A stretch of 64,000 nt of DNA from Candidatus Kerfeldbacteria bacterium RIFCSPLOWO2_02_FULL_42_19 (GCA_001818315.1 MHKF01000012.1:128080-192079); one strand, 5' to 3'. Counted from the first letter of the stretch, positions 4,567 through 25,090 are shown. Notes: generated by a model from the sequence alone, not told the origin. Made by a program: numbers and translations.

Positions 4567-4746
4567 CTGCATTTAAGATAAGGCAGGGGAAGGATATATT
4601 TTTTCAAATGTGTTGTGATAAGTACTTCATCAAATAGAGAGGAAAGTGTGCACTATAGTAACTCTTTCAAATACAGATCGTTCATGTTTGGATATCACAG
4701 CTTTTGAAAAATTTATCCTTCCCCTGCCTTATCTTAAAGTTGCAGT
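4567..4746. repeat. Family-A element, copy 1: a ~110-nt conserved core flanked by a locus-specific perfect ~30-bp inverted repeat
   Basis: Arms ctgcatttaagataaggcaggggaaggata / tatccttcccctgccttatcttaaagttgcag; the core is shared with 24925-25090 (ttttttcaaatgYgttgtgat…atagagaggaaagtgtg…ttcatgtttggatatcacagcWtttgaaaaa). Confidence 0.6.
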
Positions 4747-4854
4747 ATTACAATGTGTTTACTTATCCACAGACGGCGCTCTATAGACAACTGTCACTGT
4801 CGACGCTATAGTGAAAAGATGAGCGTTCTCTCGTTTATTTCTTAACGAGATTTT

Positions 4855-5199
4855 ATGTCTCCAAAAAATACGCATGTTCCTCGTGCTGCATCAAAAAAGT
4901 CCAAAAATCATGAGCCAACGAATATGGACATTCTCCAGGCTATTAATGATTTTGCGACTCATGTCGAACATCGATTTCAGAGGCTTGAGAATCGGATAGC
5001 AAAAGTTGAAGCTACAATGGTCACAAAAGATTACTTAGATCAAAGGCTGTTCGATTTGAAAACAGATACTATGACAGTTGTACGTCGGGAAGATCAAAGA
5101 TTCACTACTCTTGTCGATGTCTTATATAACCGAAAAATTTTGACTTCGCAAGATGTGGAACACGTGATGTCAATTGAACCTTCTGCAAAAATTTCGTAG
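4855..5199 (+). CDS. hypothetical coiled-coil protein
   Basis: 114-aa ORF with a lysine-rich N-terminus and a heptad-like middle; no family recognised. Confidence 0.35.
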   Translation: MSPKNTHVPRAASKKSKNHEPTNMDILQAINDFATHVEHRFQRLENRIAKVEATMVTKDYLDQRLFDLKTDTMTVVRREDQRFTTLVDVLYNRKILTSQDVEHVMSIEPSAKIS

Positions 5200-5294
5200 A
5201 CTTTGAAACTATACATGGGATTTATGAAGTTGTATGAGTGTCATGATTACATTCGCTCAACTATTTTTACATTTTTATTATTATTTTTTCGCTT

Positions 5295-5912
5295 ATGAAA
5301 GGATGTTGCAATAATACTGGCCTTTGTTGCCAGACAGGATCCCTGCTGACTCCCTTTGTTGGGAAAATTTTGCCGGACGGAACATTTAAAGTGTATCACG
5401 CAGGTAAAGATAAAACGGTTTCCCTTCGAGAATTTTTGGGTAAATGGCTTGTTTTATTTTTCTACCCAGCTGATTTTACTTTTGTATGTCCGACAGAACT
5501 TGAAGATTTAGCCGAACATTATACAGAAATTCAAAAAGTTAGCGCTGAGGTTTTGAGTGTGAGTACGGATACTGTGTATGTCCATAAGGCATGGCATGAT
5601 ACTTCAAAAGCTATTCGTAAGGTGCGATTTCCAATGCTTGCAGATCCAGCCGGTGCATTATGTCGAATACTCGGGACATATATTGAAGATGAAGGTTTGT
5701 CCTTGCGAGCTTCTGTGATTGTCGATCCCGATGGCGTGATTAAAGCGTACGAACTTCATGATAATAGTATTGGCCGGAGTGCTGCGGAACTCTTACGTAA
5801 ATTACAAGCGGCAAAGTTTGTACGCGAACATGGGGGTGAAGTGTGTCCAGCCAATTGGAAACCGGGAGCCAAAACTTTAAAACCAGGCATGGATTTGGTT
5901 GGAAAAATTTAA
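5295..5912 (+). CDS. 2-Cys peroxiredoxin (AhpC/Prx1 family)
   Basis: FFYPADFTFVCPTELEDL peroxidatic-Cys motif and a C-terminal VCPANW resolving-Cys motif. Confidence 0.8.
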   Translation: MKGCCNNTGLCCQTGSLLTPFVGKILPDGTFKVYHAGKDKTVSLREFLGKWLVLFFYPADFTFVCPTELEDLAEHYTEIQKVSAEVLSVSTDTVYVHKAWHDTSKAIRKVRFPMLADPAGALCRILGTYIEDEGLSLRASVIVDPDGVIKAYELHDNSIGRSAAELLRKLQAAKFVREHGGEVCPANWKPGAKTLKPGMDLVGKI

Positions 5913-5981
5913 ATTCGATCTGTTCCGTTTTGAATGTATCAAAATACCTCGTTTTTTTGCGAGGTATTTTGTGCTTTATTT

Positions 5982-6569
5982 TTAGAATCGCCTGAATCTT
6001 TTTTCTACTTCTGTCCAGTTGATGGCTTCAAAAAAAGCGTCGATGTATTCAGCGCGCTTTGTGCTGTAATCGGTGATGTAGGCGTGTTCAAACACGTCCA
6101 TCACAAAGAGGGGTGTGCATCCAGCCAAATGTCCTATGTCGTGTTCATTCACCCAAGTATTGAAGAGTTTTTTATCATGGGGGTCGCAATAGAGAATGAC
6201 CCAGCCGATGCCGCGCATTACCCCGGAAGCTTTAAAATCCTTCATCCAGTTATCAAAATTTCCAAATGTTTTTGTAAGCCTCTCGTTTGTTTTGAGCGCG
6301 CTGTTTTTGTTTTGTTTTTCTTTACTGAGATTTTCAAAATAATATTCGTGAAGACGCATGCCGTTCCATTCCCAGCCAAAACGGCGTTTGAGTTCAGCGT
6401 ATTCTGGCGTTGCGCTTTTGCCTTCTTGTCGATATTTTTCAAGAGTTTCTAATAGGGTATTCGTATTTTTTACGTATCCTTCGTAGAGCCCAAAGTGGGT
6501 CGTCAGGAGCGTGTCACTGAACCCGGGGGTTCCGAGAAGATTTTGAAAATTTTTTGGTGCGTAGGTCAT
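5982..6569 (-). CDS. Fe/Mn superoxide dismutase-family protein (divergent)
   Basis: C-terminal DVFEHAYITDY (cf. the DVWEHAYY metal-ligand motif), GWVIL, WNVVNW-like INWTEV; N-terminal His ligands only partly conserved. Confidence 0.6.
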   Translation of the reverse strand: MTYAPKNFQNLLGTPGFSDTLLTTHFGLYEGYVKNTNTLLETLEKYRQEGKSATPEYAELKRRFGWEWNGMRLHEYYFENLSKEKQNKNSALKTNERLTKTFGNFDNWMKDFKASGVMRGIGWVILYCDPHDKKLFNTWVNEHDIGHLAGCTPLFVMDVFEHAYITDYSTKRAEYIDAFFEAINWTEVEKRFRRF

Positions 6570-7101
6570 AGGTTTGACTCTTTAAGAGAATTATTTGTGA
6601 AATTATGGCTCTTTATGGATAAGATGGAAGAGTTTTTTTATTGAAAGGAGGAATGTTTCGGATTGAGCCCCTCAAAAAGGCCCGATATATGGATTATTTC
6701 CTAAAGCAGAAGTTTTCGCAAGGGGCTAAAATATAACAACCCCGAAAAGCAAGTATTGCTTCTGGGGTTGTTCAAAAGGTCTCTATTTTTAATCCCTCTC
6801 CAAAATTTTCTGCTCAGCCTTGTGCGGCGGCAGAGTGGAGGGTCACAATCTTAGAGAGGGAATTGTACATGAAGGAAAGGTGGGATTTGAGTCGGCGGGA
6901 ATCTATATGAACTCTGCGTTTGCAAATTTTACAAACACAGAGAGAAAGTTTTAAGGTTGAGGTTTGACTTTGAGCCTTTCGAACGAGGACTCCGAAATCT
7001 CATCGCGTCGTACGCAGTAACTTCTTATGCAAGAAGTCCTTCGCTATACGAACTCCGATAAGAGTCGCGCCTAGTCGGGTACTCAAAATCATTCTCAAAT
7101 C

Positions 7102-9945
7102 CTATGACGCTACATTTGTTGCACTGCGGCGATTTTTGAGAGAAGCGCAGTTTCCTGTCTCTGGGTCGACGTGCCTTTTTACTGCAGGCATTTCATGGAA
7201 AGGCACTCGTTCGCCGCAGTGTGGACAGAGGAATGTTTCTTCCCTGGTGCCGTTTTCGGCCGAGAAGAATCTGATTTGCTGCGGTCCACTCTGCAGGTGG
7301 ATGACCTCCACGTGAGTGTTTTCTTTCGGGGATTCGCCGAGTCGCACACCAAGTGTGGGCTCTTCCGCCTTGCCGTCGCGGTTGAAGGCAGCCTGTCGTC
7401 GCTCCCAGAAGTTGATTGCGGTGCGGGCATCTTTTTCCGGTTTCTTCGAACTCTCCTCACCGCCTTCTTTGGAGTCGTTCGCTATCTCTGCGCCGAGTTC
7501 CTGTACTTCGTGGAAGAATTCAGGGAGATCCGCGACGTGATCTTCGGCATCTTCTGGTGGAAGAGGAGGCGCTATCTCCTGATGCGCAGCTGTTGGGACC
7601 GCAGTCTCGATTGTCGCATTCCGAGCGAGAGCGGCGGTGAGTTCTTCGTAGTCACACAGCGCTTTTCTGAGTTTCTTTTCGGTTTCTTCGACTCGCTGCG
7701 TGAGTTCACTGATTGTCTTTTCTGATGTGACAAGCGTTTCGAGTCTGCCTTGTTCGGCAGCAGCAACTTTTTCTTCAGCACTTTTCGCGCGAATTTCTGC
7801 CACCGCTTCCTGTGATTTAGCTACTTCGGCGCGTCTTTCGGCAGTGATTTTTTTGGTATTCGCTTGCCGAAGCTCCTCGATGAGTCGAAGGTTCTCGTCA
7901 AGAAGCGCGTTCTTATTTGCTTCAGCATTTTGCGCCTGAATGCGGTAGAAGCCCGGGTTCGTGCACCCTTCGACGTCATTATTCTGTGACTCCATCTTAA
8001 TGATGTCGCTGAGTATCGGGGCCTCTTGTTTGAGCGCATCACGTTCGTTGCTGAGATTCGTATTTTTTCTACGAGCCTCATTCAAATCAACAATGATTTT
8101 CGTGCGCTCACGTTCGCTTGCTTGCAGATCCGCTTCGAGTTTTCGCTTTGTTTCTTGGAGTTGCTCGACCTTCTCTACAAGTATTCGAGTCTCGTGACCC
8201 GTGTCTCTCGTCATGTCTCCGATTTTCTTCTGAAGACTCTCTCGTGTTTTTTCCGACTTCTCGTAGTTTTTTTCGAGACGTCGGATTTTCTCTTGCTGAG
8301 TTTTGACAGTATCAGTATCGTCATCACTTGCAAACTGTCTCTTCAACACGAAGAGAATAATGAGTAGGAACGGGAGACACGCGAACATCAGAGGCGCGCG
8401 GCGCATGAAGACGTTCTGCGCGATCCAGTTATTGAGGGGATCAATGACTGGAATCCGGGTGGGATCTGCGGCAGGTTCGGCTGGCGGTGCGTCGACGGTT
8501 GGTGTTTCGGAGACGACGTTGCCGAACGTATTGGATTGCGGCAGAGTGTCATCTCGCTGAGGTTGCTGACCCTGTCCATCTTGCGAAGGCGTAGAGAGAC
8601 ACGCTGTCGAAGCTTTTGTTAGCTTTTCCTGCGTTTCGCTGAGTTTTTTCCGGAGCTTTTGAAGATCCTCCTCTGTTGCCTGCAATTTTTTGAGGGCATC
8701 ATCGAGGTCCTCCTTGAGGTTCTGCTTTTCTGTATGTAACGCAGCGGCGTTTTGACTCACCTCTTCCGATGTCGTATGCGTTTTTTTGAGGTATTTTACT
8801 TCATTACCCGGGTGGAGCGTTGCTTTTTTTACTCCTTCTTCTTCCACCCACATAGGACCGTTGAGCATCTCTAATTGCGCTTGATACTCACCCGAGGTAA
8901 ATTCCCCGGGATCATCTGACAGTCGTTGCGCGATGGACCAATACCCATCATTCGGTTCGACTGTCGTAGTATCGGTCAACTCCGTGGTCTCAAGATAGGC
9001 TAGGAGCGCTTTTAAAAATTTTTCCGATTGCTCCGCGTTTTCTTTTTCACTAAAGAAGTCGCGTCGCAGTTTGTCACCGCCATCTTGATCATCCTCCTTT
9101 ATAATGACGGTGCCAGTCTGAAAGCTGATTGTCACGGTCCCCATTGCAAACACTTTTCCGTTATCCCGAGCGATCTTGCTTTCGCTTTCGGGAGCTGTCG
9201 CAATGAAGTCTGCCTTGAGTTTGTTGACGATGTTCTCGGGCAGCCGGAACACGATTGTTCTTGATAACGTTCCGGTTTGCTGTACTTGCGCGCTGACCTC
9301 CTGTGTTTGTGGTGTTTCGGTTTTGATTGTTCTGTCTGTTTTCCTATCTTCAGGAGAGCCGAAACTTCCAATGCCAGGTGTGCCGTCGACTGATTTTTCC
9401 TTCTTTTCGGCATCGGTGGCGGGTTTTGCCTTGGCGTCAATGGGATCGCCTCCAACGCCTCTGTGTGCTGCAATACTGCGCGGCACTACCTTGAGTGTTT
9501 TTCGTCCCGCGATGATCTCTTGCTGTTTCTTCGGATCACGTCTTGCTACATTCGCGTTTTGAGCGAGTTCGGCAAGAGCGATTCTCAGATCTTGGCCGCT
9601 TCCGGAGACACTTGCGAACAAATTCTTACTCGCTCCAGTCTCTATGACTTCGTACCAGAGCAGAGTGTTTTCCTGTATTGCTCCATCGAAGACTTCGATG
9701 AGCAATTTGGGAATCTTGATCCCCGGAATGAAGATCTCCTGTGAGGAACACTGCATTTGTGTTCCTGCGGTGACTGCCTTCCCGTCTGGTGAACTGATTT
9801 TCACTACGAGATTCCGCAGTTCCGGTTCATTAGAGAGAATCCAACATTCTTGTTCTGCCCGCTCTTGATCCGCTGCGATTGCATCCACGATATTCAGAGC
9901 GAAAAAAACGCTCAACATCACGATCGTTGTTGTCATCAGTTTCAT
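7102..9945 (-). CDS. large signal-peptide/TM coiled-coil protein with a C-terminal zinc ribbon (hypothetical)
   Basis: 947 aa; N-terminal signal peptide; central TM (MFACLPFLLIILFVLK); long heptad-rich E/K/Q region; C-terminal CPHCG…C; GC content clearly higher than the neighbouring genes. Confidence 0.6.
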   Translation of the reverse strand: MKLMTTTIVMLSVFFALNIVDAIAADQERAEQECWILSNEPELRNLVVKISSPDGKAVTAGTQMQCSSQEIFIPGIKIPKLLIEVFDGAIQENTLLWYEVIETGASKNLFASVSGSGQDLRIALAELAQNANVARRDPKKQQEIIAGRKTLKVVPRSIAAHRGVGGDPIDAKAKPATDAEKKEKSVDGTPGIGSFGSPEDRKTDRTIKTETPQTQEVSAQVQQTGTLSRTIVFRLPENIVNKLKADFIATAPESESKIARDNGKVFAMGTVTISFQTGTVIIKEDDQDGGDKLRRDFFSEKENAEQSEKFLKALLAYLETTELTDTTTVEPNDGYWSIAQRLSDDPGEFTSGEYQAQLEMLNGPMWVEEEGVKKATLHPGNEVKYLKKTHTTSEEVSQNAAALHTEKQNLKEDLDDALKKLQATEEDLQKLRKKLSETQEKLTKASTACLSTPSQDGQGQQPQRDDTLPQSNTFGNVVSETPTVDAPPAEPAADPTRIPVIDPLNNWIAQNVFMRRAPLMFACLPFLLIILFVLKRQFASDDDTDTVKTQQEKIRRLEKNYEKSEKTRESLQKKIGDMTRDTGHETRILVEKVEQLQETKRKLEADLQASERERTKIIVDLNEARRKNTNLSNERDALKQEAPILSDIIKMESQNNDVEGCTNPGFYRIQAQNAEANKNALLDENLRLIEELRQANTKKITAERRAEVAKSQEAVAEIRAKSAEEKVAAAEQGRLETLVTSEKTISELTQRVEETEKKLRKALCDYEELTAALARNATIETAVPTAAHQEIAPPLPPEDAEDHVADLPEFFHEVQELGAEIANDSKEGGEESSKKPEKDARTAINFWERRQAAFNRDGKAEEPTLGVRLGESPKENTHVEVIHLQSGPQQIRFFSAENGTREETFLCPHCGERVPFHEMPAVKRHVDPETGNCASLKNRRSATNVAS

Positions 9946-9966
9946 GTTTCTTCTCCTTGCAGTTTT

Positions 9967-10117
9967 AGTTCCTACATTACTTGCAGTCTGTAGGAACTTG
10001 GTTGAAAAATTCTAGATTCAGAATTTATTCCGATAGGCAGGGCTGGCGGTTTGTGATTTTTTTCTCACAGACTGCCGGAAAAAGGTTCAATAAAAAGCTC
10101 TTTTCTAGCAGTCTGTG
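9967..10117. promoter_or_regulatory. Divergent intergenic region (large gene <-> dnaG) containing two perfect 10-bp palindromic hairpins that share a CAGTCTGT motif
   Basis: agttcctaca…tgtaggaact (9967-9998) and cacagactgc…gcagtctgtg (10067-10117); the same half-site recurs at 27258-27298 and 29984-30029. Confidence 0.3.
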
Positions 10118-10518
10118 CACGTCCGGTTTTTCTCTTTCTTTTGAGTATTTTCTAGCGGTTGTATTGCTGTATTTTCTTTCCTTCATTTTTCAAAGAACGT
10201 CACCAAAAGCGTAGTCATAAACATTGTCTTTGTCAATGTATATTTACAGTTTTTGGAAACAATTGAGTAAATCATGTATTGAAATTTTTGTCAATTTCGC
10301 ACAAAATTGAAAAAAGCGAATAGAAAAAACTTTTGTGAGAAATATCTGAAGGATATCATGACTTTCGCTTATGTTCCTCACTGGAGCAATCCTATTCGCT
10401 TTTTTTGAAAAAGGCTACTACCCGTCGGAATCCGAATCACTTCCTGCAAGAAGAAGAATCGGACGCGTAACATTACAAAAATAGTATACTTTGCCTTTGC
10501 TTTTTCGTCAAAAGCGGG

Positions 10519-10530
10519 TTGTGATATAGT
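10519..10530 (+). promoter_or_regulatory. Extended -10 element TGaTATAGT, 8 nt upstream of the dnaG ATG (possibly leaderless)
   Basis: ttgtgatatagt ends 7 nt before ATG 10538. Confidence 0.35.
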
Positions 10531-10537
10531 AACATAT

Positions 10538-12337
10538 ATGGATCAAGTCGCAGAAATCAAACGTCGACTCAACATTATCGACCTCGTGCAGGAATACGTT
10601 CCGATCAAAAAAGTCGGTACGAATTGGAAGGCGCGGTGCCCTTTTCATCAAGAAAAGACGCCGTCGTTTATGGTTTCCGAAGATAAACAAATCTGGCACT
10701 GCTTTGGCTGCAATGAAGGAGGGGATATGTTTCGTTTTTTACAAAAAATAGAAGGTTTGGAATTTCCGGAGGCGCTCCGCATTTTGGCTGCGAAAGCGCA
10801 TGTGACCCTTTCGCGTTGGGATCCGAAGATGCATACGCAACGAACGCGACTCCTTGAGGTGTTGACAGAAGCAGCGCGTTGGTATCATGAGACCTTACTT
10901 TCTGCTCCAGAGGCGGTGCGCGCCCGCGCGTATGCGCGAGAGCGAGGAATGACACGTGAGACGGTTGAAGATTTTTATCTTGGATATGCGAAAGAGACGA
11001 GGCAGACACTTTCGCAACATATGCTTACGAAGCGTTTTTCGGTACAGGATCTGATTGACGCTGGACTCCTCGTCAAAAATGATCATGGCGAGACGTACGA
11101 TCGTTTTCGTGGGCGGTTGATATTCACACTTTATGATTTGCAGGGAGAAGTCGTTGGATTTGCGGGACGTCTTTTAACACAGCGCACTGATCTTGCAAAG
11201 TATGTGAATTCGCCGGAAACTCCGGTGTATCACAAGAGTCGGTTTGTATATCATTTACATCGCGCGAAGCATGAGATTCGGGCGAAAGATGCTGTGATTG
11301 TGATGGAGGGATACATGGATGTGATTACTGCGTATCAGGCCGGAATTAAAAATGTTGTTGCGAGTTCGGGCACCGCACTGACGCGCGAGCAGATTCATTT
11401 GCTTGGGCGATACACAAAGAATATATTTTTTGCGTTTGATACGGATGCTGCTGGGAAAGAAGCTACGAAGCGCGCAGTGATTCCAGCGCTTGCTGCGGAT
11501 ATGCGTGCGCGTGTTGTCCTCACGCGCGGCGGAAAAGATCCGGACGAAGCAATTCGTAAGGATCGCGATGCGTTTTTGCACGCTGTTGAATCCGCTCCCG
11601 CGTTTATGGATTATTTTTGCGATACTCTCGCTTCTACGTACGATCCTTCCACCGTTGATGGAAAGAAACAGTACGCGCAGGAAATACTCTCGCTTTTGGT
11701 TCATCTTCCTGATATGGTAGAGCAACAACATTACCTTCAAGCGCTTGCTGAACGAGTGCATGTGGACGAGCGTATTTTGTACGAAAAATTTATTCACTTC
11801 GCAGCACGTGCCAACACTGTGGCTGGTTCGACTCCACAAACTTCGAGTGTTATTCCATCTGCGCAAATTTCTGCGCAGTCTCAGCTACTTCGTACCCCCA
11901 ATGTATTACTCGAGCGGCTCTTTGCTTGTATCTTCGCATTTCCAAAAACATTTCCCTTTATTATTGATCACCTTGATCCCGAATGGATGCGCGTCGGGGT
12001 TTTTCAAGAACTTTACAAGCGATTGATTATTTATTATACTCATCATCAAGATGTACAGTGGAAACAGATCGTGGACAATGTTTTAACTCCTGAAGATACT
12101 GAGCGATTTTCTCGTATGATTGTCGAGAGTCAAGAACTACTTTTGCAAGACGAACGTGTTATCATGCTTGAAATCGAACAGATTATTGCTCGCCTGCATA
12201 GGAATTATATTTTGGAACAACTTACTTCTCTTAAGCAAGATATTGCCGCGGCTGAACAGCGTAGGGAGACACAGAAACTTTCGGAACTTACGCATTTGCT
12301 TCGTGATTATACACAAAAACTTCATCAACTTTCTTAA
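10538..12337 (+). CDS. dnaG: DNA primase DnaG
   Basis: CHC2 zinc finger [11 protein letters not shown]…HCFGC; TOPRIM region ([17 protein letters not shown]); followed by rpoD as in the conserved macromolecular-synthesis operon. Confidence 0.85.
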
Positions 12338-12396
12338 GTCTCAATGAAAGTTTTTCTCGAAAAACTTGCTCTTTTATTTTTTGTTTAATTTTTTGT

Positions 12397-13761: not shown

Positions 13762-13830
13762 TTAAAAATTTTTTTACAAGACACTTCGTTTCACATTATA
13801 AGAAAATTTAAAAGTTTTATGAGATAATTT

Positions 13831-13922
13831 CCAAAAGAGAGGAGGGGAAAACTATAGCTTTCGAAGCACTCACAATGCACAGTGTGCTGAGAAAGTTTTG
13901 TTTTCCCCTCCTCTCTTTTGGA
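13831..13922. repeat. Family-B hairpin repeat, copy 1 (between the convergent rpoD and TrmB genes; terminator-like)
   Basis: aaaagagaggaggggaaaactatagctttcgaagcactcacaatgcacagtgtgctgagaaag…cccctcctctctttt; the core is shared with 22319-22411, 32641-32721 (opposite orientation) and 62393-62477. Confidence 0.6.
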
Positions 13923-13986
13923 AATTGCCTTCAATTCGTTGCAAATGTTGATTTTGGACACACGACACCACAAATAACATTTCCGG

Positions 13987-15566: not shown

Positions 15567-15589
15567 AAAATTGAGGGTTCATCAAATAC

Positions 15590-17350: not shown

Positions 17351-17713
17351 TTACGCAATGAGTTGATGAATCAGACTTACGAATTTGAGCCATTCTGCAG
17401 TGTTTTCCATGAGTATTATATGACCTTGTGTTGTAATGGCGTATTCTTTTTTTCGTGGGCCACGTTTTGATCGTTTCCATTGTGCCTCGATGAGTTTTTG
17501 CTTTTCAAGTTTGTGCAGGAGCGGGTAGAGCATGCCAGGTGAACATTTTAAAGCGCCGTTTGAATGAGTGCGTATCCAGTGACGGAGATAATACCCGTGC
17601 ATGGGTTGCTCTCTCAGCGCTGAAAGGATAATCGTTTCTGTTGTGCCTTTGAGGAGCTCTTTATGATTGAGTGTTATGTGCGGTAGAGAGCGAGGTTCGT
17701 CGTTGGATTTCAT
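17351..17713 (-). CDS. PadR-family transcriptional regulator
   Basis: ETIILSALREQPMHGYYL…GMLYPLLHKLEKQKLIEAQWK is a typical PadR winged helix; it is the first gene of an apparent PadR-znuC-znuB operon. Confidence 0.65.
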   Translation of the reverse strand: MKSNDEPRSLPHITLNHKELLKGTTETIILSALREQPMHGYYLRHWIRTHSNGALKCSPGMLYPLLHKLEKQKLIEAQWKRSKRGPRKKEYAITTQGHIILMENTAEWLKFVSLIHQLIA

Positions 17714-18040
17714 AAAACTTGATTTTTTCCTTGCGCTTTCGAAGCAGGGTTATTCATGGGATGAGTGAAAAATGGTATGTTACCTCTCGATATACCAATT
17801 ATATCTTACTACGATATAGTGTCAAGATTCTTCGAAGTACGAAGTGGCTTTTGTTGAGGATGCATCGAGAATGAGATCGGTTTTTTTTCGTATTTTTATG
17901 GACTGTAAAAGTATTCCCTCTTGAGCCGAAGTTTTTCCGTAATTGACCCACCAAAATTTTTATGGTAATCTTTAGCTGTCTCATGAATGTTTTTGCACAT
18001 TTATAATTTTTATTTTCGTCTTTCAGTACGAAAGACACGA

Positions 18041-18116
18041 TCCGCGGTAGCTCAGTTGGTAGAGCAGTTGGCTGTTAACCAATTGGTCGTGGGTTCGAGT
18101 CCCACCCGCGGAGCCA
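18041..18116 (+). tRNA. tRNA-Asn (anticodon GUU)
   Basis: 7-bp acceptor stem tccgcgg/ccgcgga, D-arm TAGCTCAGTTGGTAGAGC, anticodon loop cuGUUaa, T-arm GGTTCGAGTCC, encoded CCA; 76 nt. Confidence 0.85.
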
Positions 18117-18122
18117 TCACTT

Positions 18123-19649
18123 ATGCGTACTACCAAGCGAGTACTCAATATTATTCATATTGCTTCTGAAGTCGATCCGCTTTCTAAGCGCGGCGGTCTT
18201 GCTGATGTCGTTGAATCTTTGCCAAAAGCTCTCAAAGCTCTTGGACATGACGTATGTCTTTTTACTCCGCTCTATGGTTCGATTGATCGACAGCAGTTCC
18301 ATCTTCAGAATATTAAAAATGACATTCCTTTAAAGATCGATGCAACGACTTCCGTAAGTTTTCATATTTGGAAAGGTGAACTTCCTTCTGGTATCACTGT
18401 TTTCTTTATCGATAACCATGAATATTTCGGGCGATACAAAACTATCTATTTAAGCGAAGAAGGTTCTATCGCCGATAATGCCCGTTTTTTATTCTTTGAT
18501 CTTGCGGTGCTTAAGGTTATTATTGAACTTAATCTCAAACCAGATATTTTGCATTGTCATGATTACCAGTCTGGTCTTGTGCCTTATTTTCTCAAATATC
18601 GCTTTCGAAAAAGTAAGTTTTTCAAAAATACTGCAACGGTTTTCACAATACATAATCTCGTCTTTCAACTCGGTCGCAATTGGTGGGAAGTCCCCCCTGA
18701 ACTTAAAGACGACGGTCGATTGAAATTACCTTTGATGACCGCTGTCGATCAAATTTCCGCTATTAATTTTATGAAACGAGCGATCCTCACTGCTGATATG
18801 GTGAATACCGTTTCTGAGCAGTATGCTCTTGAAGTCCTGACGCCTGAAGTCGGTCAGAATCTTTATCGGTTGCTGAATAGCAAATACGATACGGGCCGGT
18901 TTATTGGTATCGTTAACGGCATTGATTACAATGAATACAATCCCGAAACAGACCCCGGCTTGTTTCGGAAGTTTTCCATCGATACATTGCAACTGAAACA
19001 AGAAAATAAAATCGGTCTGCAGAAAATGTTTCGACTGCCGTTGAATCCGTTGATTCCGGTGATCGGGAGTACGAGTCGTATTGCCGAACAAAAAGGTTTT
19101 GATCTCGTGATGCGTGTTGTCGAAACGTTCGCGCATTTGCCGTTGCAACTTATATTGTTTGGTGACGGTGGCCGTGAATATATTTCTTTTTTTAAAAATA
19201 TCGCACGTAGATATCCAAAGAAGATCGCAATCCAGCCTTTTGAAAGTCAGGATGAAACAAAAATTCTTGCGGGTTCCGATATGTTTTTGCTCCCTTCTCG
19301 ATTTGAACCGTGTGGACTTGGACAATTAAAAAGTTTACGATACGGTAGTATTCCCATTGTGCGTGCGACGGGTGGACTCATCGATACCGTAACAAATTAC
19401 GATCCCCGAACGCAGAAAGGAAATGGCTTCGTGTTCCGTAGTTATAATTCCAAACATCTACTGGTCGCTGTTGTTCGTGCTATGGAAAATTTCAAATATG
19501 CAAAGGAATGGAACGCGCTTGTTAAGCGCGGTATGCAACTTTCTTTTTCTTGGGCGCTGCCGGCAAAAAAATATGTCAAACTCTATCGTCATGCACTTCA
19601 TGTGAAAAACGGTAGTGATGCCGTCGATGTGTATAGCGAAAATACATGA
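18123..19649 (+). CDS. glgA: glycogen/starch synthase (GT5, GlgA-like), copy 1
   Basis: N-terminal IASEVDPLSKRGGLADVV (K-x-GGL motif); GT-B C-terminal region with E…PCGL. Confidence 0.8.
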   Translation: MRTTKRVLNIIHIASEVDPLSKRGGLADVVESLPKALKALGHDVCLFTPLYGSIDRQQFHLQNIKNDIPLKIDATTSVSFHIWKGELPSGITVFFIDNHEYFGRYKTIYLSEEGSIADNARFLFFDLAVLKVIIELNLKPDILHCHDYQSGLVPYFLKYRFRKSKFFKNTATVFTIHNLVFQLGRNWWEVPPELKDDGRLKLPLMTAVDQISAINFMKRAILTADMVNTVSEQYALEVLTPEVGQNLYRLLNSKYDTGRFIGIVNGIDYNEYNPETDPGLFRKFSIDTLQLKQENKIGLQKMFRLPLNPLIPVIGSTSRIAEQKGFDLVMRVVETFAHLPLQLILFGDGGREYISFFKNIARRYPKKIAIQPFESQDETKILAGSDMFLLPSRFEPCGLGQLKSLRYGSIPIVRATGGLIDTVTNYDPRTQKGNGFVFRSYNSKHLLVAVVRAMENFKYAKEWNALVKRGMQLSFSWALPAKKYVKLYRHALHVKNGSDAVDVYSENT

Positions 19650-20926
19650 AAAAAAATGTAACACAATTTTCTGGAGTCAGGCGTGAATCGCGCTCTATTC
19701 CTTGGGCAGCCCTTTTTCATATCTATCAACCAGATCACTGGGATCCGCGAGTGATTCGAAAGGTTGCAAAAGAAGCGTATTATCCCTTTCTACGCATGTT
19801 GCAAAAAAATCCGAATCATAAAATCACTTTGAATATTTGTGCTTCCCTTACCGAACAGTTGAGTCGTCACGGTATGTCGGACCTTTTGCGTGGCTTTGCT
19901 CTCTGCGCACAGCGCGGTCAAATTGAGTTTACTCAAACAGCAAAGTATCATCCTATTTTACCGAAATTACCGCGTAAGGAAATTATCCGGCAGTTTGAAT
20001 TGAACTATGCAACGAATCGAGCGTTTTTTGGAGAGGCTTTCGCGCCTCGAGGTGTGTTTTTACCGGAGATGTGCATGAATCACAATGTCGCTTCGATTAT
20101 TGCTGAGCTTGGATATGAGTGGATTGTGTTGGATGAAATTGCGTATGCCGGACGCATCGGCGATGTTTCGTTTCGTTATAAATATTACGATCCGAAGAGC
20201 ACATTATTGCTTTTATTCCGTAATAGAATCTTAAGCGATGTATTTTTCCGGTTGGATTTGAATACTGTCAGCGAATTTCGTAATTTTATACTCGAAAAAT
20301 TAGCGCCGCAGTCACCGCTCGTTACTGCGCTTGATGGAGAAAATCTTGGGCATCATCGCAAAGGTATGGACGGGATATATCATAAGCTTGTGCAAAGTCG
20401 ACCGTTTGTAACTATGACCTATTCTGAACTTCTCGCAACACTGCCACTCAGGAAACTCTCACATCCTTTACATCCTTCAAGTTGGGCTTCGCGTTCCGAA
20501 GAACTCGCCCGCGGAGTGCCTTATATTCGTTGGGATGATCCTACCAATCCGATTCACACGTTACTCTGGGAGATTACCCGAGGGGTCTTGAAGATTTTTT
20601 ATAAACACCAGGCGAAAACCGTTTTATGCGGTGAAGCACGGATTCGACTCGATCAGGCACTGAACAGCGATCAGTATTGGTGGGCATCCACACAACCTTG
20701 GTGGAGTGTGGAAATTCTTTTTGCAGCCCTCGATGAGTGGAAACAGGTACTTTCGCAACTCGCTGGCGTGCCTCAACAAGAGATTCAAAAGATTATGCGA
20801 CTTATCACTCGCACGAAACGTCTCGTACGTACATGGCAAGACAAGGGCGTTGCGGAGCGTCGCCGACTCGCCTATCTACGCACCGTGCAGGAGGCAAGTT
20901 TTCTTGGAGGTAAAACAGTTTTATGA
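19646..20926 (+). CDS. glycoside hydrolase family 57 protein (alpha-glucan-active), copy 1
   Basis: GH57 blocks HIYQP…, IEFTQTAKYHPILP, GVFLPEMC (nucleophile Glu region), WIVLDE; overlaps the next gene by 4 nt. Confidence 0.6.
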   Translation: MKKNVTQFSGVRRESRSIPWAALFHIYQPDHWDPRVIRKVAKEAYYPFLRMLQKNPNHKITLNICASLTEQLSRHGMSDLLRGFALCAQRGQIEFTQTAKYHPILPKLPRKEIIRQFELNYATNRAFFGEAFAPRGVFLPEMCMNHNVASIIAELGYEWIVLDEIAYAGRIGDVSFRYKYYDPKSTLLLLFRNRILSDVFFRLDLNTVSEFRNFILEKLAPQSPLVTALDGENLGHHRKGMDGIYHKLVQSRPFVTMTYSELLATLPLRKLSHPLHPSSWASRSEELARGVPYIRWDDPTNPIHTLLWEITRGVLKIFYKHQAKTVLCGEARIRLDQALNSDQYWWASTQPWWSVEILFAALDEWKQVLSQLAGVPQQEIQKIMRLITRTKRLVRTWQDKGVAERRRLAYLRTVQEASFLGGKTVL

Positions 20927-22317
20927 TTTGGACTAATTTTTTACATATTTATCAGCCGCCGACGCAGAAGCAACGATGGGTGCGTAAAATCGCTAACGAA
21001 AGTTACCGCAAACTCATTCGTGGATTTTTGGATAATCCCAAAGCCAAAGTTACGATGAATGTGAATGCTGTACTTCTGGAACTTTTCGATCGATATGGAT
21101 GTCAGGATGTGATTGCCGGATTGCGTGAACTTGGCGAGCGCGGACAGATTGAATTTACGGCATCAGCAAAATATCATCCTTTTTTGCCGCTTATGCCTGA
21201 GACTGAAATTGTTCGTCAGATCGGACTGAATACGGAAACAAATCGCAAGTATTTAGGTCCGGCGTATCAACCCAAAGGTTTTTTCCCGCCTGAAATGGCA
21301 TATAATCGGCGTGTCGGTGAGATTGTGAGTAAGCTCGGTTTTCGTTGGATTATTCTTGATGAACTCGCTTCTGCGCCTGCAACAGGGACACTGTCTGCGA
21401 GCGCACTGTATGAAATTAAAGGCATCCCCGATTTTTATGTTTTTTTTCGTGATCGCGCCATGAGCTTTCGAATTCTTTCTGCACAGGTTGGCGTGAGTGT
21501 GTTTTCAAGTAACATGTTGTTGGATTTTTTAGGTGATCGTTTGAATCGTAACGAATATTTACTTACGGCAATGGACGGCGAAACATTTGGACATCATCGA
21601 CCGGGTCTTGAGATGTTATTGTTTGAGATTTACAAAGCAGAGGGCATTACTTCTCTCACGATTTCTCAGCTTTTTGAACATTTTCACGAAAAACGTGTTA
21701 TTGATCCGCGTGATTCCACGTGGGCATTGATGCGTCGGGATTTGGAACGTAATACACCTTTTTCGCGTTGGAAGAATGAACAGAACGAAATTCAAATGTG
21801 GCAATGGGAGCTTACCGATTTGGCGATTCGGAATGTGGAGCACTTTGAACGCGCTAAGCAGGTTACTGCGGCACAGCGTGCAGCGCTCGATCGCGCGCTG
21901 CACAGCGATCAATATTGGTGGGCTTCCGCTGAGCCGTGGTGGAGTATTGAAATGATCGAGGCAGGTGCAAAAGAGTTACGGGATGTTGTTTTGAGTCTGA
22001 GTGTTTCAGCTGCTACAAAGCGTAAAGCAGAAGAACTCTACAAAAATATTTTGTATCGAGCTTTTGATTGGCAGCGGTCAGGCAAAGTCGAAACGATGGC
22101 GAAAATGGCGGATGAAGATGTGACGCAGCGCATTACGACCGAGATTCCTTATATTCCGGAAGAAGAATTTAATACGATCGTTGCGAATTTGACGAAGCAA
22201 ATGAAGCAGGCTGCAGATGCTTTAGAATACGAACGCGCAGCGCAGATTCGCGAGCGCATTAGCGAGTTGAATGCAAAGAAAGACGAAATTACACAACCGA
22301 AAGAGTATCGACCGTGA
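20923..22317 (+). CDS. GH57-family protein with a C-terminal UVR (UvrB/UvrC-type) domain
   Basis: GH57 blocks as in the upstream paralog, plus a C-terminal ANLTKQMKQAADALEYERAAQIRERISEL UVR motif. Confidence 0.6.
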   Translation: MIWTNFLHIYQPPTQKQRWVRKIANESYRKLIRGFLDNPKAKVTMNVNAVLLELFDRYGCQDVIAGLRELGERGQIEFTASAKYHPFLPLMPETEIVRQIGLNTETNRKYLGPAYQPKGFFPPEMAYNRRVGEIVSKLGFRWIILDELASAPATGTLSASALYEIKGIPDFYVFFRDRAMSFRILSAQVGVSVFSSNMLLDFLGDRLNRNEYLLTAMDGETFGHHRPGLEMLLFEIYKAEGITSLTISQLFEHFHEKRVIDPRDSTWALMRRDLERNTPFSRWKNEQNEIQMWQWELTDLAIRNVEHFERAKQVTAAQRAALDRALHSDQYWWASAEPWWSIEMIEAGAKELRDVVLSLSVSAATKRKAEELYKNILYRAFDWQRSGKVETMAKMADEDVTQRITTEIPYIPEEEFNTIVANLTKQMKQAADALEYERAAQIRERISELNAKKDEITQPKEYRP

Positions 22318-22318
22318 A

Positions 22319-22411
22319 GCGAGGAGTTGAGTGTAGGGATAGTATAGCTTTCGAAGCACTAACATTGTACTGTGTGCTGAGAAAGTATATTATCCCTACA
22401 CTCAACTCCTC
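22319..22411. repeat. Family-B hairpin repeat, copy 2 (after the GH57-UVR stop)
   Basis: gaggagttgagtgtagggatagtatagctttcgaagcactaacattgtactgtgtgctgagaaagtat…atccctacactcaactcctc. Confidence 0.6.
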
Positions 22412-22488
22412 GTGCAATCGATTTGGATTATTGCAACGATGCGCCTTCTCGGTCATAATAATATCAAGATGTTCATTTGTGATTTTTA

Positions 22489-23955
22489 ATGTACATGAAA
22501 GCATTGCGTGTTTTATTTATTGCTTCTGAATTGAATCCACTCGCAAAAGTTGGAGGTCTTGCGGATGTTATTGGAGCTTTGCCGAAAGCTCTCAAAAAGC
22601 AAGGTGTGGATGTGCGAATCATGATCCCAAAGTATAGCATGATTGATCCCAAGCAATATCCGATGCAGCGTATTGCGCGACGCATTCCGGTGCGCCTCTA
22701 TAATCGCACTTACTTGGTTAATGTTTTTACAACGAAACTTCCGGGCACTTCCATCACGGTATATCTCATCGATCAAAAGGATTTCTTTGCAGACGGCGGA
22801 GTGTATTATTCAAAGACAGCTCTTGTAGGTACTTTTAAAGAAATCGAGAGATTTTTGTTTTTCGGTCGTGCGGCCCTTGAAAGCCTTCCGCATCTCGGCT
22901 GGAAGCCAGATATTTTGCATTGTAATGATTGGCACACCGCGTTTATTCCTGTATGGCTTAAGACCATCTATTGTTGTCATCATCCATTTTACGCTTCACT
23001 TCGCACGTTATATACCATTCATAATCTTGCGAATCAAGGCATTGGTGATCTGAAGCTTTTAAAAGTTGCGAATGTTTCTACGCGAGCTCTCCCGAGTCTT
23101 GAACGTGATGCTCGGAATAATGATATTGATCTCATGGTACAAGGTATTCTCACAAGCGACGCGATCAATACGGTGAGTCCAACGTATGTGAAGGAGATTC
23201 TGACACCGGAATACGGTGAGCGTTTAGACCCAGTCCTCAAACTCCGCCAGCGTGATCTTTATGGGATTTTGAACGGTATTGATACGGATGTTTTTAATCC
23301 TTCCACTGATGTGCATATTCGACAGCGTTATTCGGTGAAGAGTTTTGAACAGAAGCAGATCAATAAGGCGGCCTTGCAACAAATGTGTGGTTTTCATGTC
23401 GATCCGCGTGTACCCGTTTTTGGTATGGTATCGCGTTTGACTCATCAAAAAGGATTCGATCTTTTAATCAAACTGCGTAAGGAACTTATAAAACTTCCTA
23501 TGCAACTTGTCATTTTGGGCACTGGCGATGCAACGATTGAAAAAGCCCTTGTGGCGCTCAGCAAACGATCGTCGCGCACGATGTGTATTTTTTTGAAATT
23601 TGATGCCAAGCTCGCGCAGATGATTTATGCTGGCAGTGATTTTTTTCTTATGCCTTCTCGGTTTGAACCGTGTGGCCTTGGACAAATGATTGCTATGCGC
23701 TATGGTACTCCGCCTGTTGTACGATCGACTGGAGGACTTGCTGATACCGTGCGGCACCTCAAAACAGGTGTCGTCTTCCATGATTATGCCGCCAAAGCAC
23801 TTCTTGCTGCTTTACACACGGCGATCCGTATCTATCACAATCCTCACGTGTATACTGCGTTAGCGAAAGCCGGCATGAGACAAGATCTTTCGTGGGGCAG
23901 TTCTGCTCAAGTGTATATGCGATTATATCGTAAACTCCTTGCATCCCATTCATAA
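22489..23955 (+). CDS. glgA: glycogen/starch synthase (GlgA-like), copy 2
   Basis: IASELNPLAKVGGLADVIGALP; GT-B C-terminal SRFEPCGL. Confidence 0.8.
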   Translation: MYMKALRVLFIASELNPLAKVGGLADVIGALPKALKKQGVDVRIMIPKYSMIDPKQYPMQRIARRIPVRLYNRTYLVNVFTTKLPGTSITVYLIDQKDFFADGGVYYSKTALVGTFKEIERFLFFGRAALESLPHLGWKPDILHCNDWHTAFIPVWLKTIYCCHHPFYASLRTLYTIHNLANQGIGDLKLLKVANVSTRALPSLERDARNNDIDLMVQGILTSDAINTVSPTYVKEILTPEYGERLDPVLKLRQRDLYGILNGIDTDVFNPSTDVHIRQRYSVKSFEQKQINKAALQQMCGFHVDPRVPVFGMVSRLTHQKGFDLLIKLRKELIKLPMQLVILGTGDATIEKALVALSKRSSRTMCIFLKFDAKLAQMIYAGSDFFLMPSRFEPCGLGQMIAMRYGTPPVVRSTGGLADTVRHLKTGVVFHDYAAKALLAALHTAIRIYHNPHVYTALAKAGMRQDLSWGSSAQVYMRLYRKLLASHS

Positions 23956-23964
23956 CATTATTCT

Positions 23965-24894
23965 ATGCGTCCAGAAATTCGTAAAGATTATATTCAAGAT
24001 AAATATGTGATCATCGCTCCTAAGCGTGCACAGCGTCCTCATGATATTGAAAAACCGGTCACGCAATTTAAGACTGAAATTCCTGCCATGTGCGCTTTCT
24101 GCCCACAAAATATTAATAAAGTGAAGCCGGTGTATAAGAAGGGTCGGGATCATGGTTGGTTGATTTATGTCGTGAAGAATATTTTTCCTGCCGTGTCGCT
24201 TGACAATCCGGAATCTTACGGAACGCAAGAAGTGATTATCGAAACACCGGATCACACAAAACACATGGATGATTTGCCTGAGCGACATATCGCGTCGCTT
24301 CTCCATACGTATGCCGAACGAACGCGCGCTTTGGAAAAAATTTTGAACATTGATTATATTTTAATTTTTAAAAATAACGGCGGTGCAGCCGGTGCATCCT
24401 TGAAACATTCCCATTCCCAGATTTTTGCGACACGCTTTGTTCCGCCGCAGTTGATGGATAAGTCCCGCAAGGTTTTTGAGTATAAGCTTTTCAACGGCAG
24501 GTGCGTTTATTGCGATACGATCGATAAAGAATCAAAAGGTCCGCGGTTTGTATATAAAGATCAACATGTCATTGCTTTTACTCCGTATGCATCGATGCAT
24601 AATTACGAAATTTGGATTATGCCGCTTCGGCATGTGGATAACATTACGAAACTCACGCACGTGGAACATCATTCTTTTGCTCGTATCTTAAAGCGCATTC
24701 TTAAGAAAATTACCTACCTCAATTTGCCGTACAATTATTATTTTCATCAACTCGTGAACGATACGGATCAGCATTTGTATTTGAAAATTGTACCGCGCGG
24801 TTCGGTCTGGGCGGGCGTGGAAATTGGGTCTGGCCTGGTGATTAATGCGATTGCGCCGGAGGAAGCTGCTAAGTATTATCGCGGTGAATTGTAA
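23965..24894 (+). CDS. GalT-type HIT-family nucleotidyltransferase (galactose-1-phosphate uridylyltransferase / ADP-glucose phosphorylase-like)
   Basis: CAFCPQN zinc/active-site motif and HSHSQIF (H-x-H-x-Q), with an internal duplicated half-domain. Confidence 0.6.
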   Translation: MRPEIRKDYIQDKYVIIAPKRAQRPHDIEKPVTQFKTEIPAMCAFCPQNINKVKPVYKKGRDHGWLIYVVKNIFPAVSLDNPESYGTQEVIIETPDHTKHMDDLPERHIASLLHTYAERTRALEKILNIDYILIFKNNGGAAGASLKHSHSQIFATRFVPPQLMDKSRKVFEYKLFNGRCVYCDTIDKESKGPRFVYKDQHVIAFTPYASMHNYEIWIMPLRHVDNITKLTHVEHHSFARILKRILKKITYLNLPYNYYFHQLVNDTDQHLYLKIVPRGSVWAGVEIGSGLVINAIAPEEAAKYYRGEL

Positions 24895-24924
24895 ATATTC
24901 GGGAATTTTCGTCCTGTAATTGAA

Positions 24925-25090
24925 AGAGTGAAGAACGGCGAGCATATGTTTTTTCAAATGCGTTGTGATTACCAACTTTATGAGATAGAGAGGAAAGTGT
25001 GTACGAGAGCAACTTTTTCAAACGAATATCATTCATGTTTGGATATCACAGCATTTGAAAAAACATATGCTCGCCGTTCTTCACTATTCA
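24925..25090. repeat. Family-A element, copy 2 (conserved core in a different, locus-specific perfect ~28-bp stem)
   Basis: Arms agtgaagaacggcgagcatatgtttttt / aaaaaacatatgctcgccgttcttcact; the core aligns with 4567-4746. Confidence 0.6.

Follow-up and report, generated by a model that had tools for sequence, protein, structure and literature searches.

REP/BIME and REPIN sequences of Enterobacteria and Pseudomonas are short, non-coding and non-autonomous palindromes of intergenic and 3′ regions, often lying in operons; their transcripts form stable hairpins with effects on mRNA stability and termination. Correia (CREE), ERIC/IRU and RUP/BOX elements are MITE-like, non-coding intergenic insertions of 100–200 bp which form long hairpins, vary in presence between relatives and can also sit in operons. 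Correia elements can be processed by RNase III. A mobile segment at the centre of a palindrome is seen with IS200/IS605 and PATEs, IS1397/ISKpn1 in BIMEs and IS1111/IS110 in attC or REP sites, and integron attC sites are sequence-variable, imperfect palindromes located right after stop codons. Template-switch hairpins have perfect reverse-complement stems and show multi-base compensation without G-U, stem extension and loop inversion (Monttinen & Loytynoja, 2022, PMC8794818; inverted-repeat expansion, PMC13100816; proteobacterial inverted repeats, PMC5941160).

The hairpins described here, from a 64,000-nucleotide stretch (the window) of the genome of an uncultivated groundwater bacterium, Candidatus Kerfeldbacteria (CPR), resemble each of these systems in the respects named, and differ from all of them. 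REP/REPIN units have conserved paired arms and a variable spacer, whereas here it is the paired arms that vary, and these are perfect and much longer; no GTAG-type conserved tip was seen, nor any RAYT or other Y1/HUH gene in the annotated loci. In Correia, ERIC, RUP and BOX elements the terminal inverted repeats are conserved family-wide and the target site is duplicated (TA in Correia), whereas here the arms are unique to each copy and the 50-nt flanks of eight elements contain no significant direct repeat (best scores all p ≥ 0.08). Hairpin-targeting insertion sequences depend on a transposase and an already existing palindrome, whereas the empty sites of a sister species hold no target hairpin, and no transposase or other mobility gene was found among the Pfam-annotated genes of ~84 kb, in which several large ORFs are without a Pfam match. 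The attC sites have conserved outer R″/R′ core sites around a variable centre, whereas the present elements are flanked by syntenic housekeeping genes rather than cassettes, with no integrase. Finally, template switching is described as a source of mutations in genes or repeats that already exist, whereas these elements are a dispersed family with a common core, and no source sequence for their arms can be seen at the empty sites.

We put at roughly one in two the probability that the two principal elements, A1 and A2 (family A), are a lineage-restricted, non-coding, non-autonomous palindromic insertion element whose arms are kept perfect by template switching at the DNA level and which is transcribed by read-through as a hairpin. 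This assessment covers ~84 kb of the genome, two A copies and ~9 kb of one close relative.

Structure and location of the family A elements

A1 (4567–4745) and A2 (24927–25085) have in common a core of ~115 nt (Table 1), identical at 95 of 115 aligned positions (83%) and with the invariant blocks TTTTTTCAAATG, GTTGTGAT, ATAGAGAGGAAAGTGTG, TTCATGTTTGGATATCACAGC and TTTGAAAAA. A 21-mer and a 17-mer of the core each occur exactly twice in the window, the expected numbers being 0.00 and 0.07. The outer arms are no more similar between the copies than shuffled sequence is (z = 0.8), and of the terminal repeats only the inner one, of the core (TTTTTTCAAATGYGTTGTGAT / ATCACAGCWTTTGAAAAA), is common to both. 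The conserved core and the unrelated perfect arms of the original prediction were thus both found, and its description of the elements as the inverse of a classical MITE, in which the terminal inverted repeats are conserved, is correct.

The perfect arms of A1 comprise 25 bp (4572–4596 / 4714–4738); beyond a 2-nt bulge there are five outer pairs, CTGCA/TGCAG (4567–4571 / 4741–4745), and one T.T mismatch occurs at the arm/core junction. A2 pairs perfectly over 35 bp (24927–24961 / 25051–25085), 22 of which are copy-specific (AGTGAAGAACGGCGAGCATATG) while the other 13 form the terminal inverted repeat of the core itself (TTTTTTCAAATGC / GCATTTGAAAAAA). The perfect, locus-specific stems had been put at 28–30 bp, which is slightly generous but essentially right. 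There are no G-U pairs whatsoever in the A arms. Folding energies range from −75 to −82 kcal/mol (z = −10 to −14), and six perfect stems of at least 20 bp are present in the window as against none in 30 shuffles, in which the longest stem was 15 bp. Independent assemblies from several samples carry identical elements, so they are not assembly artefacts.

A1 starts 18 nt past the stop codon of the ROK gene (4548) and A2 30 nt past that of GalT (24894), both in the orientation of their flanking genes. The + strand ORFs expected downstream are present at 4855–5199 (114 aa) and 25111–25308 (66 aa), but their placement looks incidental; for the 114-aa ORF a separate, conserved promoter lies downstream of A1.

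Table 1. Coordinates of the palindromic elements within the window
Feature	Position	Strand	Description
A1 whole insert	4549..4763	+	~215 bp, missing in sister species; ROK stop to conserved TTATCCACAG; 18 nt + hairpin + 17–18 nt
A1 left arm	4567..4596	+	CTGCA + TTTAAGATAAGGCAGGGGAAGGATA; copy-specific, 70% purine
A1 conserved core	4597..4713	+	Imperfect terminal inverted repeat TTTTTTCAAATGTGTTGTGAT / ATCACAGCTTTTGAAAAA; internal GAAAG..CTTTC hairpin; invariant blocks 4634–4650, 4681–4701
A1 right arm	4714..4745	+	25-bp perfect complement of 4572–4596, GT bulge, TGCAG
B1	13826..13926	+	27-bp perfect arms around 40-nt B core GCTTTCGAAGCACTNACANTGNACNGTGTGCTGAGAAAG
B2	22320..22412	+	B core in 27-bp arms (one G.T); in sister orthologue, both sides differ in 5 of first 15 arm pairs
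A2 whole insert	24895..25097	+	~200 bp, missing in sister species, which has 17 nt between GalT stop and ATG of next ORF
A2 left arm	24927..24948	+	AGTGAAGAACGGCGAGCATATG; copy-specific
A2 conserved core	24949..25063	+	83% identity to A1 core; terminal inverted repeat TTTTTTCAAATGC / GCATTTGAAAAAA perfect in A2
A2 right arm	25064..25085	+	Perfect complement of 24927–24948
B3	32595..32768	-	Minus-strand B core in ~175-nt imperfect hairpin; outer arm CAAAAGAGGAGGA common to B4
C	36809..36973	+	31-bp perfect arms (34 at 97%); unrelated 103-nt core; missing in sister species, where flanking genes overlap (ATGA)
B4	62396..62477	+	34-bp perfect hairpin holding fully paired B-core variant

Empty sites in a sister species

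The insertion sites of A1, A2 and a further hairpin, C, were compared with a sister species, the only close relative of the source bacterium, in which the ROK and GalT proteins have 80 and 90% amino acid identity, respectively. There, TTATCCACAG follows directly after the ROK stop, a spacer of 17 nt separates the GalT stop from the next ATG, and the stop of the dCTP deaminase gene overlaps the next start; none of the three sites has a hairpin or any arm sequence. In one more distant member of the Kerfeldbacteria, a 75-nt ROK–AhpC spacer is likewise without a hairpin. Given that core and arms are both missing, A1, A2 and C, arms included, are shown by this comparison to be derived insertions of ~200–220 bp at gene ends and not insertions into older hairpins. 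Both A copies entered their intergenic sites recently. As in MITEs, presence is polymorphic between close relatives at all three loci. For C as well as for both A elements, the comparison contradicts one of two explanations offered previously, in which the core enters the loops of pre-existing hairpins such as terminators; empty-site hairpins lacking the core were sought at these orthologous loci in the sister species and none was present. The flanking genes there are 17 nt apart or overlapping, an indication of operons, and two of the elements lie inside operons. The Pfam domain of the dCTP deaminase ends at residue 362, roughly the end of the sister protein and the limit of its homology to the window protein, so that the 15-residue tail of the latter reads into the insert.

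Further hairpins and concerted change of the arms

The same architecture is found in eight elements within ~84 kb, namely two of family A, four of family B, C, and D, which lies just outside the window. In each, a conserved central module with its own imperfect inverted repeat is placed inside Watson-Crick-perfect arms of 21–35 bp that differ from copy to copy. C is the third element that had been noticed as having the same architecture and a different core, and the B core of 40 nt is present inside four further long hairpins. The arms of B1, B3 and B4 are partly homologous; B3 and B4 have an outer arm in common (23/25) and differ in the inner 7–8 bp, a block pattern closer to modular replacement than to uniform drift. 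The 5′ arm is purine-rich in all seven window elements (0.55–0.90), and likewise in D and the sister hairpin (manual count). Nested palindromes occur in D and B3.

Between B2 and its sister orthologue, nine of 15 arm pairs are the same, one has changed on one side and five have changed on both sides with pairing kept. Across the family B alignment, 95.3% of cells are paired and double changes occur in 18 pairs (27 cells) as against two one-sided cells, a level of covariation reached in 0 of 500 shuffles; almost no G-U is involved. Both arms thus change together in family B, with double changes far outnumbering one-sided or G-U changes, as is expected of template switching. For family A the end state alone is visible, in the form of unrelated but perfect arms. 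The arms are also rich in SNPs, with two of nine polymorphic positions of ~44 kb falling within ~300 nt of arms, both of them fresh mismatches. A search for the arm source gave one 15/16 reverse-complement match between the A2 left flank and the A1 core (E = 0.21).

Proposed maintenance and transcription of the elements

Template switching has been documented to build perfect stems, lengthen them and introduce compensatory changes of several bases in a single step (PMC8794818; PMC13100816; PMC5941160). In the elements described here, template switching during replication between the palindrome halves would keep the arms perfect and possibly lengthen them. Under such homogenisation, arm sequence would drift at an approximately neutral rate while pairing stays perfect, and the similarity of the cores would mean either that the core is the copied part or that it is selected.

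No promoter-like or terminator-like site was found in A2 or C, and the sole promoter-like match in A1 straddles the junction of arm and core and has no conserved counterpart in A2. The short G+C-rich stem, small loop and U tract of an intrinsic terminator were not seen at A1, A2 or C; no T run follows the A arms, and a T6 is present after C only. With no detectable promoter, the elements would have to be transcribed by read-through, as what are predicted to be very stable intercistronic RNA hairpins. They would probably act on the cell in the manner of REP/BIME, ERIC or Correia elements, through mRNA 3′-end protection, RNase III processing or partial intercistronic termination. The core P1 helix contains a conserved U.G and the B cores a tandem G.A, both on the gene-sense strand, and these would also fit an RNA role. 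The elements are a natural case for how long perfect hairpins arise and persist.

Certain observations do not agree with this model. Template switching copies local sequence, yet the arms of A1, A2 and C are unrecognisable at the sister empty sites, and each insert has 12–45 nt of unique non-palindromic flank, so the origin of the arms is not accounted for by this process. The block pattern of B3 and B4 also counts against it, and the purine richness of the 5′ arms is not predicted.

Alternative explanations

The other explanation originally offered was that family A is a structured ncRNA gene with a functional core and a long closing helix drifting by compensatory change. We regard such a gene as unlikely, although the core is far better conserved than the arms, its internal hairpins are kept through G-C/G-U changes on the + strand, and the consensus fold, with the conserved U.G in P1, is more stable on the + strand (−21.4 kcal/mol) than on the − strand (−11.1 kcal/mol). 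Both copies are also co-oriented with their flanking genes, and the strong covariation of the family B arms upholds that part of the explanation in which the helix changes on both sides and stays paired. It is the selected, trans-acting RNA gene that is disfavoured, because G-U and one-sided changes are nearly absent, no conserved promoter or terminator was found, and neither an Rfam match nor conservation outside the lineage was detected. The A and C elements matched no Rfam family even at E ≤ 10, generic miRNA-precursor models matched B hairpins only, and the gathering threshold was passed in the window by a tRNA at 18041 alone; the A cores have no copy in the sister species or in any collection searched. 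The ratio of 27 double to two one-sided changes in family B is unlike that of RNA families, the B3 core is opposite in orientation to its flanking genes, and the two A sequences contain 0 compensatory pairs inside the core. The scarcity of G-U and one-sided changes, with the missing promoter, Rfam match and wider conservation, points to palindrome maintenance at the DNA level rather than to such a gene.

It is doubtful that the core is a small mobile element which enters the loops or centres of pre-existing palindromes, in the manner of IS200/IS605, IS1397 or IS110-type elements, the arms being older host structures. The core does own a terminal inverted repeat, CATATG flanks A2 on both sides, B3 and B4 resemble a B core within a common outer palindrome, CAATGTGCAAARCAAAAGARGAGGA, and the palindromes of D and B3 are nested. 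Against this, besides the empty sister sites and the lack of a transposase among the Pfam-annotated genes of the ~84 kb, pairing is more perfect in the outer arms than in the inner repeat, contrary to what is expected of older arms, and there is no consistent target duplication, CTTTCTA being present on both sides of D only.

Similarly improbable, and to our knowledge a mechanism without precedent, is that the arms are synthesised anew at each insertion, for instance by self-primed snap-back copying of a single-stranded 3′ end folded on the inverted repeat of the core, only the central module being inherited. If true, CPR bacteria would have a class of mobile DNA not previously described, adding a unique perfect stem of 22–35 bp and a short filler per integration. 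This would explain the inverse-MITE architecture, the missing target duplications and also the purine bias of the 5′ arm, which is strand-symmetric and could reflect a templating or tailing bias. Consistent with it, arms and short unique flanks are missing together at the three empty sites, the arms are unique and perfect, and arm mismatches are seen only as rare fresh SNPs. There is, however, no candidate reverse transcriptase, HUH enzyme or polymerase nearby, the arms of B1, B3 and B4 are partly homologous, and the orthologous B2 pair shows in-place divergence, so de novo synthesis is not needed.

It is very improbable that a small protein is encoded by the core. The candidate ORFs would have 46 aa in A1, starting at GTG 4646, and 52/58 aa in A2 (24946–25104), with GAGAGGA ahead of the start. 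Both copies keep this frame open, four of ten codon differences are synonymous (read by eye) and gene callers annotate the A2 ORF in some assemblies, but the A1 ORF is called in none, the C-terminal halves extend into the unrelated arms, the Shine-Dalgarno-like sequence lies just ~3 nt from the GTG, and a search of 1.84 billion representative proteins gave, apart from the ORF itself, just one spurious repeat protein, with no conserved peptide found for family A. Scarcely credible, too, is an invertible DNA switch (inverton) for the downstream ORF with the arms as recombinase targets, for although inverted repeats of 22–30 bp surround a segment of ~90–117 bp upstream of a gene and the B3 core runs opposite to those of B1 and B2, the segment is a very short one for a recombinase to invert and contains no promoter conserved between copies, no invertase or recombinase is present in the window, the repeats are unrelated from locus to locus, and all independent assemblies carry a single orientation.

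Structure of the family A elements

The palindromes described here form a real family of insertion elements, non-autonomous and restricted to one lineage, in which the usual pattern of conservation is inverted. A conserved core between unique arms is the reverse of what every standard repeat-finder and MITE-finder assumes, and elements of this pattern are probably under-reported. The two family A copies, A1 and A2, lie where they had originally been predicted. Their cores are 83% identical (95/115), and exact occurrences of the 21-mer TTCATGTTTGGATATCACAGC and the 17-mer ATAGAGAGGAAAGTGTG in the window are confined to these two loci, with ~0 expected for each. Only the outer 22 bp of the A2 stem are specific to that copy, the inner 13 bp (TTTTTTCAAATGC / GCATTTGAAAAAA) being part of the shared core. 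Similarity between the arms of A1 and A2 is at the level of shuffled sequence (z = 0.8), and the predicted pattern of a conserved core within arms unrelated between copies was therefore borne out. Both elements have folding energies of -68 to -82 kcal/mol on the two strands, 10-14 SD below shuffles. Some contigs of independent assemblies stop within the A cores (L006 at window position ~4689 and L020 at 25027), which is consistent with a repeat or hairpin breaking the assembly graphs, as expected for a repeat. Besides contig breaks, such elements also give false miRNA-like RNA matches.

Elements of the same plan

The core-in-arms architecture is general in the genome from which the window is taken. 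Four further long inverted repeats (family B) enclose a common 40-nt core, GCTTTCGAAGCACTNACANTGNACNGTGTGCTGAGAAAG, which is a hairpin in its own right with a tandem G.A/A.G mismatch. B3 and B4 have in common an outer arm, CAAAAGAGGAGGA (Shine-Dalgarno-like), and its complement CCTCCTCTTTTG; the outer arm and adjoining flank are alike at 23/25 positions, while the 7-8 bp beside the core differ, and this block-wise similarity is a modular pattern. The third element of the original prediction, with the same architecture and another core, was confirmed as C, and a singleton, D, was found outside the window. All seven window elements are intergenic, most starting 0-30 nt past a stop codon. Six perfect stems of at least 20 bp are present in the window and none in 30 shuffles, where the longest stem was 15 bp. 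The 5' arm is purine-rich in 7/7 window elements (0.55-0.90) and, by our own count, likewise in D and in the B-like hairpin of the sister species; this bias is strand-symmetric, since the two strands of a palindrome have the same sequence.

Palindromic elements and their coordinates (window positions unless a contig is named)
Element	Position	Description
A1	4567-4745	Arms 4572-4613 / 4697-4738 (repeat search); 25-bp perfect stem plus 5 pairs past a GT bulge (exact-stem scan)
A2	24927-25085	Arms 24924-24961 / 25051-25088 (repeat search); 35-bp perfect stem, 24927-24961 / 25051-25085 (exact-stem scan)
B1	13826-13926	B core within copy-specific perfect arms
B2	22320-22412	B core within copy-specific arms; upstream of glgA
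B3	32620-32742	B core on minus strand
B4	62396-62477	B core within copy-specific perfect arms
C	36809-36973	31-34-bp arms; unrelated core
D	L010 2126-2251, ~7 kb upstream of window start	Singleton; 126-nt nested palindrome, 16-bp perfect outer arms
Sister B-like hairpin	L014 3129-3194	24-bp perfect; upstream of glgA
Distant CPR relatives	L015 3136-3218	Inverted repeat
Distant CPR relatives	L022 17446-17563	Inverted repeat
Distant CPR relatives	L022 4730-4908	Inverted repeat
Distant CPR relatives	L021 11523-11649	Inverted repeat

Empty sites in the sister species

Exact protein matches assign the window to Candidatus Kerfeldbacteria bacterium RIFCSPHIGHO2_02_FULL_42_14, a CPR organism of the Rifle aquifer, and the elements are identical across independent assemblies (GCA_001818735.1, GCA_001818335.1 and several from ENA/Logan). 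The sole close relative in a collection of 5.8 billion proteins was one organism, from Logan run SRR22388088 (the sister species), with ROK and GalT proteins 80 and 90% identical to those of the window; the next relatives are at 54% (ROK) and 69% (GalT). Contigs of the sister species cover the orthologous sites of A1, A2 and C. At the A1 site, its ROK stop codon is followed by one base and then TTATCCACAG; in the window, 18 nt, the hairpin and another 17-18 nt precede that same TTATCCACAG. Downstream, both sequences share a promoter-like TAGACA-17-TATAGT and, in the 5' UTR of the next gene, a conserved hairpin. At the A2 site, the GalT stop and the start codon (ATG) of the same small ORF are separated by 17 nt in the sister species and by 216 nt in the window. 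At the C site, the sister dCTP deaminase stop overlaps the start of the next gene (ATGA); the window has ~220 extra nt and a deaminase with a 15-residue tail reading into the insert. The Pfam domain of the deaminase ends at residue 362, approximately where the sister protein and homology to it stop. A more distant member of the Kerfeldbacteria with the same gene order, taken as outgroup, has a ROK-AhpC spacer of 75 nt with no hairpin. The three empty sites, together with the outgroup, show that A1, A2 and C are insertions derived in the window's lineage, each comprising the core, its arms and a unique flank of 12-45 nt, those of A2 and C lying inside operons. It had been proposed that the core was inserted into the loops of pre-existing hairpins; in its simple form this is contradicted, the empty sites at A1, A2 and C having no such hairpin.

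Near the A1 site, the small hairpin TCTCGTTTATTTCTTAACGAGA (window 4829-4850) lies immediately 5' of the ATG of a 114-aa ORF and is identical in the sister species (L009 ~1623-1645), and a similar TTTCTTAACCGAAATTTTATG is found ahead of AhpC in one distant member of the Kerfeldbacteria (L021 ~10905-10925). The hairpin may represent a conserved element of the 5' UTR. The gene 3' of C (36988-38517) encodes 509 aa with MtrA-like, thymidylate-synthase and pterin-binding DUF4346 domains, an unusual fusion adjoining dCTP deaminase.

The genomic behaviour of the elements most resembles that of REP/BIME, ERIC and Correia-type repeats, although the conserved termini and target duplications by which MITEs and REPs are defined are missing. 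No significant flanking direct repeats or target-site duplications were found, the only feature resembling one being a direct repeat, CTTTCTA, 2 nt beyond each arm of D. Within the ~84 kb examined, no gene with a Pfam annotation was identified as a mobility gene.

No promoters or terminators conserved in the elements were found. As A2 and C lie in operons and contain no promoter-like sites, the genes downstream must be transcribed through the hairpins, and the elements would act as intercistronic RNA hairpins. Lying between co-transcribed housekeeping genes, hairpins this stable (-75 to -87 kcal/mol) must either influence how the mRNA is processed or be tolerated actively, here in the setting of a reduced CPR genome with small repair and regulatory repertoires.

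Evolution of the arms

The arms were demonstrated to evolve in concert. The sister species carries a B-like hairpin at the position orthologous to B2, adjoining a conserved promoter region. Counting outward from a shared AGTATAGCTTTCGA, nine of the first 15 pairs are identical in the two hairpins, one has a one-sided difference (G.T versus G-C) and five differ in both arms yet still form Watson-Crick pairs. The stem of B2 extends ~12 bp further outward than that of the sister species, and the apical loops are unrelated. Upstream of the sister hairpin, an opposite-strand 407-aa gene takes the place of the window's GH57 gene, the break in synteny coinciding with the hairpin.

When the arms of the four B copies and the sister hairpin were aligned (32 pairs), 95.3% of cells were paired, and changes on both sides affected 18 pairs (27 cells) compared to two cells changed on one side only; neither shuffling nor sliding the register came close to this. 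The ratio of 27:2, with almost no G-U, is unlike that of RNA families drifting through wobble pairs and is of the kind that DNA-level copying from arm to arm yields. Among near-identical strains, two of nine polymorphic positions in ~44 kb fall within ~300 nt of perfect arms, indicating that the arms are mutation-prone. Both are fresh mismatches: C>A at 13915 (B1) in GCA_001818735.1 and T>C at 62468 (B4) in one ENA scaffold.

Template switching during replication is documented to make and extend perfect stems, to invert loops and to produce multi-base compensatory changes in a single event (PMC8794818; also PMC13100816, PMC5941160), and would maintain the pairing of the arms. Long, perfect, fast-evolving hairpins whose halves change in concert offer a clean natural example of what this model predicts, and are rarely seen as a dispersed family. 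The A2 left flank with the start of the arm (24914-24929, CTGTAATTGAAAGAGT) matches the reverse complement of part of the A1 core (4661-4676, ACTCTTTCAAATACAG) at 15/16 positions, which could be a template-switch footprint, though E = 0.21. Against template switching, the process draws on neighbouring sequence as its template, but nothing recognisable as the arms is present at the empty sites; neither the modular arms of B3 and B4 nor the purine-rich 5' arms are accounted for. For the arms of family A the end state alone is visible, unrelated yet perfect; by analogy with family B, they may either have diverged in concert past recognition or have been rebuilt. Any real novelty would sit in how the elements spread and where their arms come from, and if the arms are made at insertion, this would be a new transposition chemistry.

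The other original explanation, a structured ncRNA whose closing helix drifts, stood in part. The consensus fold of the + strand is better than that of the - strand and a few pairs are kept via G-U, but the two sequences contain no compensatory core pairs and no promoter. At gathering thresholds Rfam detected only tRNA in the window, and at E <= 10 only generic miRNA-precursor matches on B hairpins.

Three further readings were rejected. A small protein is suggested by a frame open in both cores, but the 52-aa ORF of A2 matched only itself among 1.84 billion representative proteins, and the gene called at 24946-25104 in some public annotations is probably spurious. An inverton was dismissed, as there is neither a promoter nor a recombinase and every assembly has the same orientation. 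Spacer-like capture of the arms from foreign DNA was likewise dismissed, 20-21-mers of the A1, A2 and C arms having no match in IMG/VR; no third copy of these arm sequences was found in the window.

Distribution

The A 21-mer had no exact match in GTDB representative genomes, JGI metagenome contigs or IMG/VR, and the B-core pattern had none in IMG/VR and GTDB representative genomes. A degenerate, translation-based search of JGI contigs with the A core returned 90 pattern matches, none of them confirmed, and the full A1 element had no blastn match in phage and plasmid collections. The source genome is seemingly absent from the DNA collections scanned, and these negatives concern other genomes rather than further copies in the source genome. 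Searches with nhmmer at maximum sensitivity, covering ~150 kb from the window, its flanks and relatives, gave no extra or degenerate copies of A, B, C or D. A sliding 160-nt folding scan separated the elements from background too weakly to reveal decayed copies.

More distant CPR relatives have their own perfect inverted repeats of 17-26 bp around 31-141 nt (e.g. TTGTCATTCCCGCGAAAGCGGGAATC), with sequences unrelated to A-D. Hairpin-flanked intergenic elements may thus be widespread in this group, the plan being common and each family narrow.

Elsewhere in the window, a low-G+C block at ~48000-60000 (0.38 versus 0.44), with no long hairpins, contains glycosyltransferase, methyltransferase, aminotransferase and ABC (Wzm/Wzt-like) genes and is probably a surface-polysaccharide island. 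A minus-strand ORF at 7102-9945 encodes 947 aa with no Pfam match, and a 160-nt stretch inside it (8401-8560) folds unusually well (-70 kcal/mol).
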